Source: Octopus vulgaris (Eukaryota). Taken from it: DNA of 64,000 nucleotides. The stretch spans positions 159,030,001 through 159,094,000 of the forward strand of contig OX597816.1 of assembly GCA_951406725.2 (NCBI GenBank). Direction: 5' to 3'. The position numbers were made by a program, and so were the translations under genes. Below the pieces are notes generated by a model. It had not been told where the DNA came from and searched no databases. It was given only the letters and a program-made list of their open reading frames with translations. Within the stretch, counting starts at the first letter, position 1; every line of letters starts with the position of its first letter. Below are positions 8,128-15,539 of the stretch, one piece after another.

Positions 8128-8171
8128 ATATATATATATATATATATATATATATATATATATATATATAT

Positions 8172-8363
8172 ACGCCATGATAAATCGTTAGCTACTACAC
8201 ACATTTTTTTCTCTCCTTGTTTTTTCTGTGTACCTTTCTGTAGAAGAGCGTAGGCTCGAAACGTAAAAAACTTTTTCTATTCCTGAACGCTATACTAATA
8301 CACCTGTTTGTTTGTACACTACCTGCCTTCGTCTTTTGTTTATTTTCGTAAACTTTCCCTTCA
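8172..8363 (+). mobile_element. (TA)n-embedded Penelope-like 3'-end cassette with a degenerate minimal hammerhead motif
   Basis: CTGTAGA-A-GAGC(GTAG)GCTC-GAAA-CGTA at 8238-8265; pyrimidine-rich tail ending cccttca(TA)n; (TA)n on both sides. Confidence 0.55.
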
Positions 8364-8599
8364 TATATATATATATATATATATATATATATATATATAT
8401 ATATAAAGGTTAGCTGAGTTAGAGGTTAAAATAGAAGTATCCATTACACTACTGGTATATAACCTATGTTTAACCATGAGCACTCATATGCAAGCATATT
8501 ATGCTCATAAATTATATGTAAAGTATTAAATTAATAAATAATAATTGATGTAAGTCAATTGTTGTTCATCAATATTTCTCCATTTTCTGTTTTCTTTAA

Positions 8600-8950
8600 T
8601 ATATATATATGTATGTATATATATATGTATGTATATATATGTTATATATATATATATATATATATATATATGTATATATATGTGTGTGTGTGGTTGTATA
8701 TATATATATATATATATATATATGTATATTTATATGTATATATTATATATATATATATATATATATATATATATATATATATATATATATATATATATAT
8801 ATATATATATATATATATATATATATATATATATATATATATATATATATATATATATATATATATATATATGTATATATATATACATACATACATACAC
8901 ACATACACACACACACACACACACACATATATATATACTCACATATATAT
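8600..8950. repeat. (TA)n/(TG)n/(CA)n microsatellite block
   Basis: Direct observation; source of the spurious YI-repeat ORFs. Confidence 0.97.
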
Positions 8951-9039
8951 TCTTTCTTTTATATGTTTCAACCCTAAGGCTGTGGCCATGCTGGGGCACC
9001 GCCAGCATAATCACCTTTTAATTGGCCAATTTTATGTGA

Positions 9040-10845
9040 TTGGCTTTTGGTGAAGGAGGGAGCTCAACACTGCTGCTCTCTTTTGAGTTTTCTACCTTGA
9101 AATTTGTTCATCTGGGATTGTGGATAGCAAGAAGTCAAGTTGTTTCTTGAAAACATCTACCCACGCTACATGGAGACCCCTCAGATATTTTAGCTGTGGG
9201 CCCTTGAATCCCAAGCTATTGCAATATCTGATGGGACAACTGGAACTTTTGGAACAGTGCAGTGACTTCCAATTCGAGGTCTGGTACAACTCCCAATTTC
9301 AAAGTTTGGTGCCAACCTCTCCAGTATCTTCCACGCATATATCACTGCATACCTCTCCCGTCTTCGCTCCAGGGAATAGACTAGCAGCTCTTTCAGTCTC
9401 TCCCTGTAGCTCAGCTGTTCCATTGATGCAATCCTCCTTGTGTAGCATCACTGAACCGCTTCAAGTAGGTTACTCCAAAGTATCGTTCTTACGAATTCTG
9501 AGCACCAGTTAGCTGATAGCAGAGGGCTTGGAATTTGCCTGCATTGAATTGCATGTTGTTTTCTTCTGCCCATTTATATATGGCATCTGGGTCTTTATGT
9601 AGAAGATTAGCATCAGAAGGTTCCTTGACTGCTTGTACTACTTTTTGTGTCGTCGGCATAGCTAGTAGGTGTGGCTACCTGTGTAACTAATGGCATGTCT
9701 GAAAGAGCCATCATGAACAGCAGCGGCCCCTGAGGCACTCCACTTTCTAACACTGTCTCCTTGGAGAGGACTCCATTGGCTGCAACAACCTGGCTTCTGT
9801 CGTTTAAGAAGTCATGCAACCACTCTCCAATTTTCTCAGTTATGCCGAGTCTGCTCAGTTTTTGATTTATCGTCACGTGATCAACCTTTTCAAAGGCCTT
9901 TGCAAAGTCAAGACATATCACATCCTCGTTTGAGCGATTCTTTAATTGCTTCAATACCCAGTCATAATACTGCAAAAGCTGTGTAAGGCAGCTTCTTCCT
10001 GAGCGAAAGCCATAGGAAGCAAGTCATTATCTTCAAGGAACGCAATTAGTTTCTTCCTGATAATGCGCTCCATGACTTTGCTGACATGGGAAGTTAGAGA
10101 AACTGGTCTATACTTTTTAGCATCTGCTCTATCTCTCTTATGAATAGGGCATATCATGCCTTCCTTTAACTTTTTAGAAAGACTCCCAGTTGTGAAGAAG
10201 TTCCGGAAGAGAATCTGAAGGGGTCTTGCTAGAACCCCTTTGCATGTCTTTGGGAGGATTGCCTGTTGCTGAGTTTGAGCTTATTTCATCAATGGCTGAT
10301 ATCACATCAGTTTCCCCTATTCTAATACCATCAATAATTGCCATTTCATTGTGTAGAGCTGTGGAACCAAAAATCTCATCAGGAATAGCTAATTGCAAGT
10401 GTCCCAGTGGAGTGGGGAAAACATTCTTGCATTGCAGTCAGTATTTCACTGATCCTCTGGGGGTCTACAGTCGGCGAGCCATTTCTTTCAAATAGTACCC
10501 CTCTTTTGTACCGTACTGAAGCAGATTTTTTTGCATACCTATAGAAGGTTTTAGGGTTTAATATTTTTGACAGCCCTGGCTTCCTTTTCTGCCCTCTCTT
10601 TTTCATGGGAGTGTTTGAGTTCATTTTCGATCTCGAGCAATGTTTGTTTGAGATAGGATCGTTTGTTATTCTTTAGTGGCCCATTTAGATGATTTGAGAT
10701 TTTTGCTCGTCGTCCCATAAGAGTCCTCCTATCCCTGGGTGTTATATCTTTCTGCTGGCTTGGCATTCTCTCTAGAGTATATATCATGCATGATTGTCAT
10801 AAAGTGCTGTGGCATTATGTCAATATCTTGCGTAGAGAGACTGGC
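9040..10845 (-). mobile_element. Decayed CR1/L2-group LINE ORF2 (RT + C-terminus), 5'-truncated
   Basis: ORF fragments NPKTFYRYAKK, CPIHK..RADAKKYRPVSLTSHVSKVMERII, DVICLDFAKAFEKVDH, SGVPQG..PLLF, YADDTK, LSYRERLKEL.VYSLERRRERY. Confidence 0.92.
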
Positions 10846-10889
10846 TGAGACGTATAAACACTATCACAGAAACACGCGCGGGCGCGCGA

Positions 10890-13250: not shown

Positions 13251-13473
13251 CAAATTGAGATAGGGGTTGTAAATGCAACCCTCCATGGGATAACATATAT
13301 CCAATTCGCGTGTCCGTGCGAGGGCGTGCATGCTCATGTATGTGCATGTGGGTGCATTTCGGCGTATCCACTTATATTTACTATATTAGGTTTATCTTTG
13401 TGCTCTTCTTAATTTGTATTCCATTTTATTTATCTATTTATCTATACATGGATATATATATATATATATATAT

Positions 13474-13703
13474 ACCGGAGTAAACACATAAATGTGAAAC
13501 AAGGTGGAAAAAAGAGTACTCAAATACCAGTGGTAGAGTAATATGCTTTATTTTAAGCAGCAGAAAATTCAACAAAATCTGTTACTCTGAGTTTCTCGTT
13601 GCCGTTCATCAGACAGTTTTTGCTAGCAAAAACTGTCTGATGAACGGCAACGAGAAACTCAGAGTAACAGATTTTGTTGAATTTTCTGCTGCTTAAAATA
13701 AAG
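13474..13703 (-). mobile_element. (TA)n-embedded Penelope-like terminal cassette containing a perfect 158-bp palindrome (13546-13703)
   Basis: Palindrome centred on GCT|AGC (13624/13625); the minus-strand arm continues through AATAAA into a T-rich tail and (TA)n. Confidence 0.8.
13628..13676 (+). ncRNA. Minimal type I hammerhead ribozyme motif (mirror copy on the minus strand at 13573-13621)
   Basis: Stem I AAAACTGT / ACAG(A)TTTT; core CTGATGA (13637-43); stem II CG-GCAA-CG (A.A at the 10.1/11.1 position); GAAA (13654-57); stem III ACTCAGAGT; cleavage triplet GTA (13664-66). Confidence 0.72.
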
Positions 13704-13849
13704 TATATATATATATATATATATATATATATATATATATATATATATATATATATATATATTTATTTAATTATTTATTTTTGTTTATTTGGCACTTACT
13801 AACTTATAATTAATTTAATTTAATTTATAATTAATGAACTTATATCTAA

Positions 13850-14650
13850 GTTAATACTAGTAATTTTCTAGAAAATTACTAGTAATTAGTAATAACTTAG
13901 TAACTAGAAAATTACTAAATGGAACCCGGACATACATATGTGCCACTTTGGATCCTAACGTAAGCGATATTAACAATATTATGAATGATAATGATGGTAG
14001 CATTAATGGTATTGACAACGATAATGATGCTAACTTTAATGACACTTTGGAAATTAGTAGGAAGTAATATAATGTACTATTGACTATGTATATTTGCATC
14101 TAGGTACTAATATGTGTATGTTTATTATCAAAATATTAAGTTGAAAACTGAAACATTGAATGTGGAACATATATATGTTTACTAATTTATATTATTTATT
14201 TACATTATTATGTATATATGTATATTTTTATATGTATAGGAGTGTGAGTATATGCACTCATATGTATATGTATATCTCCGAAGAGGCCTTATGATACTTT
14301 TGTAAATGTCTCATTTATATCCATATATTGACCTACCATAAAAGGCTAATATTGGTAGAATGAGACATACTTATCTACATGGCCGAAACAGCTGTAAGAT
14401 GTAATCTATACTTATATTTATATTTACTTATATTTATATTCTCTTTTTTATATATATTCTACTTATTATACAACATTACTCTTTTATGTACACTTTTTTA
14501 TGTACATTCCTTTATGTACACTGATTTGTTCTGCTTTTTTTATGTTTAACCCTACAGTCTCTTATGTGGTGGTTTAATAAAGTATGTAATTGAGTATTAT
14601 CTGATAATTGATATCTGATTTAGATGTATTTCTCCATTTTCTTATCTTGT
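13850..14650 (+). mobile_element. Penelope-like element 3' portion: short 5' palindrome, ORF C-terminus, hammerhead-bearing 3' region, AATAAA and pyrimidine tail
   Basis: actagtaattttctagaaaattactagt palindrome at ~13856-13883; open frame ...LLNGTRTYICATLDPNVSDINN...EISRK* ending ~14067; hammerhead at 14271-14403; AATAAA ~14576; ends tatttctccattttct before TA. Confidence 0.6.
14271..14403 (+). ncRNA. Type I hammerhead ribozyme motif with variant core (CCGAAGA) and ~100-nt stem II
   Basis: Stem I TATATCT / AGATGTA; CCGAAGA (14278-84); GGCC (14285-88) / GGCC (14381-84) with internal ATGTCTCATT/AATGAGACAT and CTACCA/TGGTAG helices; GAAA (14385-88); palindromic stem III ACAGCTGT; cleavage triplet GTA (14394-96). 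Confidence 0.78.
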
Positions 14651-14814
14651 ATATATGTATATATATATTTAAGTGGGTGAATGAATTATCCTAGTATGGA
14701 TAATTCGGTTAATCGATACTTGGGTAGCAAATTCACGTCAGAAAACACGGTTGAAGCTACCTGCCAAGGGCAGAAACCCCGTGTTCTTGTGTGGAAATTT
14801 GTGTTTTTTTTTTT

Positions 14815-14935
14815 ATATGAATAAATGAAAGGATGGAGTCGAACGAAGATTTTAACAAAATTCCTTTACATGTGTTGAGAGTAAAGGAATTTTGTTAAAA
14901 TCTTCGTTCGACTCCATTCTTTCATTTATTTATGT
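14815..14935. repeat. 55-bp inverted repeat with 11-nt spacer next to (TA)n
   Basis: 14815-14869 pairs with 14881-14935 (a few G.T positions). Confidence 0.9.
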
Positions 14936-15539
14936 ATATATATATATATATATATATATATATATATATATATATATATATATATATATATTCCTTTATT
15001 TTCCCCCTTATTTCGATTATCAGGCTTTAGACATGCTTTACCACGAACATAATAGCTTGTTTAGTTGATCACATCACACGTCTATTTATTCTAAGTATTT
15101 CTTGGTGAGTCGCTAAATTACGGAACATAAACAAACTACACCGCCTTTTAAGCGGTGTTAGCATAAATAATGACGGTGGCTTGCGTATTCGGGTGATTTT
15201 CCGCTAAAGTTTAACAGGGTAAGAGGTAACTTCTTGCTCTTAAAGACCGGTCAGTGTTTTCCTTCCCAACATTAGTCTCTTGGACCTTAACTGTATAGTT
15301 AATTCCTAAATCTGATTTGTATTACTGCCCAAAACACACACACACACAAGTTGTCGAGCTGGCAGAATCGTTAGAACACCGGCATTTCGTCTGTTTTGTT
15401 GCCGCGGTTGACTACCGGTGTCGATAATATAAATAACAGCTGAGTTCTGAGGTTGATGTAAACGACTAGCCCCATTACCTCAGAATCGCTGGCCTTGGGC
15501 CATAAATTAGAAGGGATCATTAATCATTATCATTAATAG

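Follow-up and report, generated by a model that had tools for sequence, protein, structure and literature searches.

Truncated ends of Penelope-like elements as the probable inserts of a TA microsatellite in Octopus vulgaris

Seven TA-bracketed cassettes and their setting

Positions 8128-14990 of the analysed window, a 64-kb stretch of the Octopus vulgaris genome, contain seven short cassettes (c1-c7), all of which have (TA)n on either side (7/7), at positions that agree to within a few bases with those proposed in an earlier note; no duplication is readable inside the TA. TA runs account for 19.5% of this interval as against 0.2% and 1.8% of its flanks, and other long TA runs in the window adjoin SINE-like repeats. 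The main features are as follows:

8173..8362, plus strand: c1, TA-bracketed, likely 3' stub of a Penelope-like element (PLE); 97 nt from putative cleavage site to 3' end
8406..8596, no strand assigned: c2, TA-bracketed, without hammerhead or fold-back
9613..10280, minus strand: broken LINE reverse-transcriptase fragment amid SINE-like repeats, outside the cassette set (Pfam RVT_1, E 7.5e-14; homologues)
11781..12544, minus strand: c3, a 657-bp main arm (596-bp unit plus 61 bp) head-to-head with a 107-bp inverted arm
12284..12376, minus strand: c3 tail, 93 bp, between the two 3' ends (11781/12377 and 12284/12544)
12377..12437, minus strand: 61-bp exact direct repeat of c3, copying the 3' end 11781-11841 and giving a 596-bp period
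12438..12544, plus strand: c3 inverted arm, exact reverse complement of 12284-12390, stopping at the tailed 3' end
12545..13250, no strand assigned: (TA)n tract of about 700 bp, the longest of the window
13251..13452, no strand assigned: c4, TA-bracketed, with four local hairpins and without hammerhead
13475..13703, minus strand: c5, head-to-head pair of very short stubs; 158-bp perfect palindrome of Hydra-type geometry
13762..14652, plus strand: c6, 890 bp; short palindrome close to the left end, hammerhead motif at 256 nt from the 3' end
14670..14934, minus strand: c7, a 200-bp arm with an inverted arm of about 54 bp, without canonical hammerhead

The earlier note described the interval as a hot-spot of short unique cassettes. 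The middle 2.4 kb (8946-11404) do not belong to this set, being made up of SINE-like repeats and the LINE reverse-transcriptase fragment. The cassettes are mutually unrelated: among all pairs of the eight cassette pieces aligned, two exceeded z 2.5 (c2/c5 and c4/c6), and homology was rejected for both, as the alignments are AT-rich. Uniqueness holds for c3 only inside the window, beyond which it belongs to a high-copy family. Because cassette DNA makes up 4.3% of the window as against 6.8% for PLEs in O. vulgaris (6.83% in PMC13282606), the supposed hot-spot is better described as ordinary nesting. ARAGORN found no tRNA, and Rfam over positions 1-30000 returned hairpin and microsatellite noise only among the 150 of 168 matches listed. 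Cassettes c2 and c4 carry no diagnostic feature at all.

Hammerhead motifs

A hammerhead descriptor matched four of the seven cassettes (c1, c3, c5 and c6) and nothing in the rest of the 64-kb window. The motifs, named after their cassettes, are:

8235..8268, plus strand: h1, degenerate minimal type I hammerhead motif; core CTGTAGA, with A6 changed to U and an extra A after A9
11977..12076, minus strand: h3, type I hammerhead; canonical core, 6-bp stem I, 69-nt stem II region, stem III ACGTGCGT
13633..13670, plus strand: h5; canonical core, stem II of 2 bp only, stems I and III of Hydra-clade type
13616..13579, minus strand: mirror copy of h5
14271..14403, plus strand: h6, type I hammerhead motif; core CCGAAGA, with U4 changed to C, 7-bp stem I, 100-nt stem II region, stem III ACAGCTGT

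The four type I motifs with palindromic stem III described earlier are thus present, with stem III sequences as first read, although two of them are weak. When the cassettes were dinucleotide-shuffled (n = 1000), 985 shuffles gave no matching cassette, 14 gave one, one gave two and none reached three; this test is lenient, because the descriptor was written after the motifs had been seen. In Rfam h3 alone scores (Hammerhead_1; 21.2 bits, short of the gathering score of 34; E 0.019 over 657 bases), with no hammerhead match for h1, h5 or h6, nor for c2, c4 or c7.

Stems I and II are formed in the predicted folds of h3, h5 and h6, and the minimum-energy structure of h6 is a three-way fold (z -2.3). 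In h1, which has a stem I of 3 bp, a stem II of 4 bp and ACGT as stem III, stem I does not form in the predicted ensemble. Predicted stem III self-duplex energies are -1.7 kcal/mol for h1, -8.8 for h3, -7.4 for h5 and -11.1 for h6. A hammerhead-shaped junction in c7 (14735-14800, plus strand) was rejected for its non-canonical core and a z of -0.4.

The stem III of h3, ACGTGCGT, is a perfect palindrome in most copies of the c3 family (63%, 79% and 94% of depth in contigs of three DNA-type runs). Of the h3 variants in the family, one perfects stem III, while a distal pair is preserved by another and disrupted by a third; none is compensatory. Variants fall at 0/33 places in the core and stems of h3 versus 36/563, which is not significant, and neither is purifying selection on h3 (CpG 0/5 versus 4/12, P 0.26). 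In matches to the c5-type motif, stem II, left unconstrained in the search pattern, pairs in 138/138, most of them from two families.

Anatomy of the cassettes

Of the four fold-back termini claimed earlier, those of c3, c5 and c7 are clear, while c6 is marginal, with a 30-bp palindrome and a 14-bp arm only; c1, c2 and c4 have no inverted arm. The spacer-less palindrome of c5 joins a 150-bp arm carrying a 71-bp tail (13475-13545) to a 79-bp arm without tail. The fold-back of c7 is one-sided, with arms of 37 and 12 bp and a tail of about 150 bp inferred from one copy; by geometry alone, c7 is likely a PLE stub. Since the inverted arms of c3, c5 and c7 reach one end only, and no cassette has terminal inverted repeats at both ends, a MITE or another DNA transposon with such repeats was rejected.

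PLE coding sequence (reverse transcriptase, GIY-YIG) was sought in all cassettes, none of which has a recognisable frame. A 67-aa N/D-rich frame in c6 was considered as a PLE C-terminus and rejected (0 matches among 12 candidates, no Pfam family, one low-complexity match). Other traits of PLE stubs are present, namely a hammerhead near the 3' end in 4/7 cassettes, an inverted arm in c3, c5 and c7, and a tail of 71 bp in c5 and 93 bp in c3.

Relation to Penelope-like elements

A motif pattern derived from c5 was found at 120 metagenome loci, with a head-to-head pair at 18 of them, whereas the c1 motif gave 0 matches in metagenomes. The 3' ends behind the c5-type motif lie at 25-34 nt in 69/105 and at 95-104 nt in 24/105 evaluable matches, and c5 itself has 33 and 104; these loci thus have two 3' ends about 70 nt apart, in the geometry of c5. 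In the main c5-type family, 45/52 evaluable copies stop, like c5, no more than 20 nt upstream of the motif. At one locus (L022) an endonuclease of the Hydra clade, identified by its match to the Hydra-2_Amil row, ends 98 nt upstream of a c5-type motif; Pfam did not recognise the endonuclease ends of this locus or of L049. The tie between c5 and an endonuclease is thus an indirect one, since similarity between c5 and the metagenome loci, which come from other organisms, is confined to the motif of about 40 nt; c5 may be called Hydra-like by its motif only. A (TA)4 lies within 300 nt downstream in only 16/118 evaluable metagenome matches. Published octopus PLE consensuses gave no match to the cassette motifs searched, and the window contains neither Naiad 3'-end motifs nor that of Hydra-1_Obim. 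The Penelope link drawn in the earlier note is supported by the motif behind the L022 endonuclease and by the recurring two-ended, head-to-head geometry, but its term mini-elements fits c3 at best, the other cassettes having the look of truncated stubs.

The c3 family

At this locus c3 consists of 1.1 units with one hammerhead. The closed unit has no long reading frame (longest stop-free stretch 67 aa), as in retrozymes, which have no protein-coding capacity. The family is high-copy, with at least 0.58 of c3 words in 20 of the 24 runs listed, from three organisms, and with 1285, 592 and 1391 matching contigs in three DNA-type runs; none of the runs listed is recorded as RNA. Loose ends in TA at 12283 and 12292 in run X3 correspond to the tailed end against TA, and contigs also show an opposite-strand joint at another breakpoint. 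We consider c3 to be probably a closed 596-bp unit, and its family probably a non-coding 0.6-kb passenger that is high-copy in two organisms.

Whether c3 goes further and is a true non-LTR retrozyme, with tandem arrays elsewhere that are transcribed, cut by the hammerhead to 596-nt monomers, circularised and copied by PLEs into TA repeats, seems to us possible but somewhat unlikely. It would account for the 1.1 units, which require a tandem or circular template, and agrees with the closed unit lacking any stop-free stretch above 67 aa. It is also favoured by coverage, with 30/30 bins filled in 4/4 runs and nearly no DNA contig continuing into unlike sequence, and by the tail-to-body junction 12283/12284, which is crossed in two organisms by contigs of depth 1249 and 839 (10 and 6 differences). 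However, the earlier retrozyme label presupposes a tandem, and this locus, with one hammerhead only, falls below the criterion of a 2026 preprint (10.64898/2026.07.22.740005), which asks for two or more units in tandem, each bearing a hammerhead. Moreover, among the records listed one only, near-identical to the window (X3 record 28), spans the junction with 31 letters on each side, and the hammerhead is dispensable for in vitro insertion of an anole PLE (PMC11167929). Conversely, the 596-bp period could be confined to this locus, if during one insertion a full-length PLE gave rise to a truncated copy that switched template onto the tail of another copy, with the family an ordinary autonomous PLE. 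PLEs typically leave partial tandems of truncated copies, and depth rises several-fold near 12290-12300 in X1, X3 and X12 (24 of 205 loose ends being listed); nevertheless, diverged high-depth contigs span the junction in both organisms, A and B, and none of the 24 of 205 loose ends listed continues from the body near 12283, which leaves this origin rather improbable.

Discussion

The reading that we hold very likely is that the locus is a TA microsatellite whose unrelated short inserts are the 5'-truncated 3' ends of different PLE families; c3 would probably be a passenger of 596 bp that codes for no protein and is moved along by the same enzymes. The GIY-YIG nuclease of a PLE would cut both strands of TA-rich DNA, and the reverse transcriptase would prime from each cut at two RNA start sites 70-150 nt apart; two copies that end early would then be joined head-to-head. 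The outcome would be a long arm with a short inverted arm, their 3' ends differing by the tail, and a hammerhead near the 3' end would be retained where the stub is long enough. Palindromic stem III would allow two hammerheads to cleave as a dimer. Later insertions may nest in the same place because each insertion leaves TA on both sides. Two reverse-transcription start sites are known to define the tail, both strands being extended (PMC11167929), and octopus Hydra and Naiad families favour (TA)n (PMC8557442).

Other TA-targeting elements (Naiad PLEs, Dong/R4 LINEs, SINEs or small DNA transposons) may have supplied the hammerhead-less c2, c4 and perhaps c7, together with the left end of c6, although on balance we doubt it. 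Naiads target (TA)n without canonical hammerheads, and among the recently active LINE groups of O. vulgaris Dong-R4 outnumbers all others; on the other hand, c7 folds back on one side only, as PLE insertions do, terminal inverted repeats occur in no cassette and the Naiad 3' ends published for octopus gave no match. It is extremely improbable that assembly artefacts or chance account for the fold-backs and motifs. The c5 palindrome is indeed perfect and spacer-less, L019, one of the 18 metagenome loci with a head-to-head pair, is palindromic over its whole contig and lengths of long TA are prone to error, but the shuffle test, the same geometry in independent assemblies, and raw-run contigs showing c3 ends and an inversion speak against it. 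The earlier note further suggested that the elements may generate the long TA tracts. Synthesis of (TA)n by the elements themselves, for example through telomerase-like repeat addition, could draw on the excess of TA runs over the flanks and on the kinship of PLE reverse transcriptases with telomerase, yet is very unlikely: candidate target duplications in related metagenome insertions are 10-18 bp long (8/10 evaluable pairs, without a computed null) and cannot yield a 700-bp tract, a TA run is absent beside most of these insertions and the window has other long TA runs next to SINE-like repeats. The claim is therefore unsupported. Replication slippage is the established source of TA tracts.

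Compared with known systems, the truncated-stub reading has a close parallel in Hydra-clade PLEs, including Hydra-1_Obim of Octopus bimaculoides (2021, PMC8557442), which share the (TA)n target, an inverted truncated copy, a tail and a type I hammerhead near the 3' end with a near-palindromic stem III of 9-10 nt; stems I and III of c5 are identical to those of Hydra-2_Amil save the central base. In contrast to these elements, the cassettes have no coding sequence, the Hydra-1_Obim motif is not among their four, tails measure 71-93 bp (about 150 in c7) as against the 30-40 bp given for PLEs, and stem II of h3 and h6 is far longer than in any listed Hydra motif. The minimal hammerheads described for metazoan PLEs and for truncated solo copies of these elements (Cervera and de la Pena, 2014, PMC4209133) share type I topology, palindromic stem III and, with h1 and h5, an extra base after A9; there, too, families are highly diverse within one genome, truncated copies yield single motifs and opposite-strand pairs lie close together. 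By contrast, h3 and h6 lack the extra base and have stem II regions as long as 69 and 100 nt, and h1 and h6 differ in their core substitutions. PAc, a Poseidon element of Anolis carolinensis (Frangieh et al., 2024, PMC11167929), likewise has two start sites defining a tail, cutting and extension of both target strands and AT-rich targets, but its ORF begins within the hammerhead, whereas no ORF start is evident behind the cassette motifs. Non-LTR retrozymes of animals (Cervera and de la Pena, 2020, PMC7229834; Li, Clavereau and Pollet, 2026, 10.64898/2026.07.22.740005), for which a PLE origin has been proposed, are like c3 non-coding and high-copy with one type I hammerhead per unit, and the c3 unit falls within their reported 51-972 bp; c3 differs here in its 1.1 units with one hammerhead and in showing the marks of a PLE insertion, namely a TA target, two 3' ends and an inverted arm.

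TA-targeting, hammerhead-bearing octopus PLEs are already catalogued as a kind (PMC8557442 supplement). Because they have been published for octopus and stubs are expected in TA tracts, the cluster as such matters little. The core descriptor used in that study has a spacer of 7-17 nt, and the stem II regions of h3 and h6 lie outside it, so that some elements called hammerhead-less may have been missed; hammerheads with a stem II of 70-100 nt would, if real, evade the usual PLE descriptors. Since c3 has the look of a high-copy passenger without coding capacity in which the Penelope insertion signature is preserved, it lends itself well to testing the proposed movement of animal retrozymes by Penelope proteins. 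Should c3 turn out to be a retrozyme abundant in octopus, in the form of a non-coding circular RNA of 596 nt whose hammerhead has a long stem II and which Penelope enzymes copy, a reading that we consider unlikely, it would be one that retains the full PLE insertion signature of TA target, two reverse-transcription start sites and inverted arm, and it would give mechanistic evidence that PLE proteins mobilise animal retrozymes.

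Organization of the TA-rich region

The earlier note described seven cassettes lying between TA runs in the stretch 8128-14990, and all seven are present at those places.

Cassettes of the region (window coordinates)
8173-8362, c1, TA-bracketed cassette
8406-8596, c2, TA-bracketed cassette
11781-12544, c3, TA-bracketed cassette
13251-13452, c4, TA-bracketed cassette
13475-13703, c5, TA-bracketed cassette
13762-14652, c6, TA-bracketed cassette
14670-14934, c7, TA-bracketed cassette

TA runs of at least six units occupy 19.5% of 8128-14990, compared with 0.2% of the left and 1.8% of the right flank, and the cluster of cassettes is real and beyond chance. 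Each of the seven occurs only once in the window, and their mutual comparison revealed no convincing kinship. An exact 16-mer is common to c2 (8573-8588) and c6 (14627-14642), near their right ends, with overall similarity that is not significant. On the plus strand of c4, 13251-13400 folds into four hairpins in series (z -2.7, 1 of 200 shuffles equally good), with no ribozyme match. A 67-aa N/D-rich open frame of c6 (13864-14064) yielded nothing in a homologue search; rotifer Penelope-like elements (PLEs) have asparagine-rich inserts (PMC3846280).

The interval 8946-11404 is unlike the cassettes: besides SINE-like repeats, of which the window contains many copies, it includes a broken LINE reverse transcriptase (Pfam RVT_1).

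Other repeats in the window
9613-10280, minus strand, frameshifted LINE reverse-transcriptase fragment (Pfam RVT_1)
21121-21492, tandem dimer of a 168-184-bp SINE-like unit
25319-25686, tandem dimer of the same unit
33228-33593, tandem dimer of the same unit
44684-45014, tandem dimer of the same unit

Among 13 homologues of the LINE fragment, the single named one (60% identity) bears a name truncated at 'Octop', in keeping with, though no proof of, an octopus host; relatives of the fragment carry an exonuclease-endonuclease-phosphatase domain. Short frames at 1952-2979 and 3927-4298, judged by eye, resemble 3' parts of another non-LTR retrotransposon.

Hammerhead motifs

The proposal that four cassettes bear hammerhead-like motifs was borne out by a relaxed type I descriptor, which gave five matches at four places, all within cassettes, and none elsewhere in the whole 64 kb. 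Although 4 of 7 cassettes matched and none of 1000 shuffles reached three, this test is lenient because the descriptor was composed with the motifs in view. The motifs of c1, c3, c5, and c6 (h1, h3, h5, and h6) differ in quality. The long-stem-II motif h3 (69 nt), with a canonical core, is the sole motif scored by Rfam (21.2 bits, below threshold), and in the other one, h6 (100 nt), which has C at position 4, the three-way junction is the predicted minimum-energy structure (z -2.3). The core of h5 is canonical, with a stem II of just 2 bp, and in h1 position 6 is U and stem I does not form in the predicted ensemble. In all four, stem III cannot form a hairpin and is predicted to self-pair at -1.7 to -11.1 kcal/mol, as would be expected for hammerheads acting as dimers. 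No hammerhead was found in c2, c4, or c7. At 14735-14800, c7 contains a 7-9-bp stem around a short hairpin, followed by GAAAC, a hammerhead-like shape with a non-canonical core, located on the strand opposing the fold-back polarity.

Fold-backs and 3' ends

Fold-back termini had been ascribed to four cassettes; one-sided arms do occur in c3, c5, and c7, whereas c6 has only a 30-bp palindrome. In c5, a 150-bp arm stands head-to-head with a 79-bp arm, the long one having 71 extra 3' bases; the arms of c7 measure about 200 and 54 bp, and in c3 a main arm of 657 bp is combined with an inverted arm of 107 bp, the 3' end of the latter extending 93 bp further than that of the former. Terminal inverted repeats were considered and rejected, as the fold-backs are one-sided. 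The sequence CCCTTCAT is common to the 3' end of c1 (8355-8364) and the tailed end of c3 (12526-12544). Most cassettes, as well as a related metagenome family, have pyrimidine-rich 3' ends, and these shared ends may mark the start of reverse transcription.

Resemblance of c5 to Hydra-clade Penelope elements

Among the Hydra-clade hammerheads tabulated by Craig et al. (2021; PMC8557442), that of Hydra-2_Amil shares stems I and III with h5 except for the central base. A metagenome pattern with the stem I and III parts common to both motifs fixed and stem II free matched at least 120 loci; the free part pairs in all 138 of the 138 matches listed, most of them from two families. In these main families, 69 of the 105 evaluable listed matches have their 3' end 25-34 nt behind the motif, and 24 have it 95-104 nt behind (c5: 33 and 104). 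Among the matches listed, 45 of the 52 main-family copies that have sufficient sequence upstream end within 20 nt of the motif, like c5, a count conditioned by the pattern's demand for the whole motif; this may be a preferred stop. At locus L022, a frame ends 98 nt upstream of the motif, and its last residues match the Hydra-2_Amil endonuclease.

Head-to-head pairs occur at 18 of the 120 listed loci, one being an assembly palindrome. A candidate target duplication of 10-18 bp accompanies 8 of the 10 evaluable pairs, a count that omits seven short-flanked pairs and the palindrome and has no null model. Against the Penelope link, a downstream TA run follows in only 16 of 118 evaluable listed matches. 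The design of c5 recurs in another organism as a TA-bracketed mini-cassette (L043:230-465), in which the c5-type motif has a third variant of stem II and is followed by a 3' end at a distance of 107 nt. Despite a likeness to the metagenome loci limited to the motif, c5 would thus work like a Hydra stub.

The c3 family

The main arm of c3 consists of 596 + 61 bp; the template therefore ran past its own start. Its tail (the stretch between the two alternative 3' ends) leads into the 213 bases that precede the hammerhead, whereas in a full PLE the ORF would follow. Contigs of depth 1249 (run X12, 10 differences) and 839 (run X16, 6 differences) span the junction 12283/12284; of the records listed, a single one has 31 letters on either side of it. 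In none of the three DNA-type runs do contigs continue into unlike sequence (share 0), compared with a share of 0.17 in X3, a run outside these (loose-end evidence for c3 comprises 24 of 205 loose ends). The unit has no stop-free stretch longer than 67 aa and no tRNA; c3 is probably a non-coding 596-bp passenger. Li et al. (2026; 10.64898/2026.07.22.740005) propose an origin of retrozymes in PLE ends and count as retrozymes only elements with two hammerhead units; c3 differs in that it does not have these two units at this locus.

At least 0.58 of the sampled c3 words were contained in 20 of the 24 listed runs (organisms A, B, and C). When the contigs of four runs were compared with one 596-bp unit (11842-12437), the DNA-type runs yielded 1285, 592, and 1391 contigs, with 30 of 30 bins covered. 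For one variant, a depth of 13,350 comes from a single contig, while rare variants have depths of 11-50, from which we infer hundreds to thousands of copies. A change at position 11987 that gives a perfectly palindromic stem III accounts for 63%, 79%, and 94% of depth in the DNA-type runs, compared with 14% in X3. In run X3, TA loose ends occur at both 12283 and 12292, and opposite strands are joined at 11899/12366; thus, other loci also have the tailed end and the inversion. Variants above 5% affect 0 of 33 core and stem places versus 36 of 563 elsewhere in the unit, a difference short of significance; the h3 variants of the family included no compensatory pair.

Proposed mechanism and published context

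In an anole PLE, AT-rich target DNA is cut on both strands and each strand is extended, reverse transcription proceeds from two internal sites whose spacing equals the tail, and the hammerhead is dispensable for insertion in vitro (Frangieh et al., 2024; PMC11167929). Carried over by inference to the c1-c7 region, this mechanism would prime one copy per target strand, each from its own start site; both copies would be truncated and then joined, giving the observed arms and tails. Stubs reaching far enough would retain the hammerhead, and shorter ones, such as c7, may lose it. Insertions would nest because TA remains on either side of the insert. The earlier note also suggested that the elements generate the long (TA)n tracts; duplications of 10-18 bp at each insertion cannot build the 700-bp tract at 12545-13250. 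Slippage is the usual source of TA tracts.

A preference for (TA)n was reported for Hydra-1_Obim and for three Naiads of octopus by Craig et al. (2021; PMC8557442), who also described inverted truncated PLE copies and tails. Diverse minimal hammerheads, mostly single motifs from truncated PLEs with some opposite-strand pairs, and of low, dimer-dependent activity, were reported by Cervera and de la Pena (2014; PMC4209133), and palindromic junctions and non-coding cargo moved between pseudo-LTRs by Arkhipova et al. (2013; PMC3846280). According to Bonar et al. (2026; PMC13282606), 190 PLE families together make up 6.83% of O. vulgaris; the cassettes occupy 4.3% of the window, which is no excess for a comparable host. 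The cassette families were not found in the accessible literature or by motif in the supplements of PMC8557442 and PMC13282606, where FASTA line breaks could mask a motif; they may well be catalogued already in Repbase, Dfam, or the O. vulgaris library. Elements of a known kind account for most of the cluster, and its interest rests on c3 and the two long-stem hammerheads.
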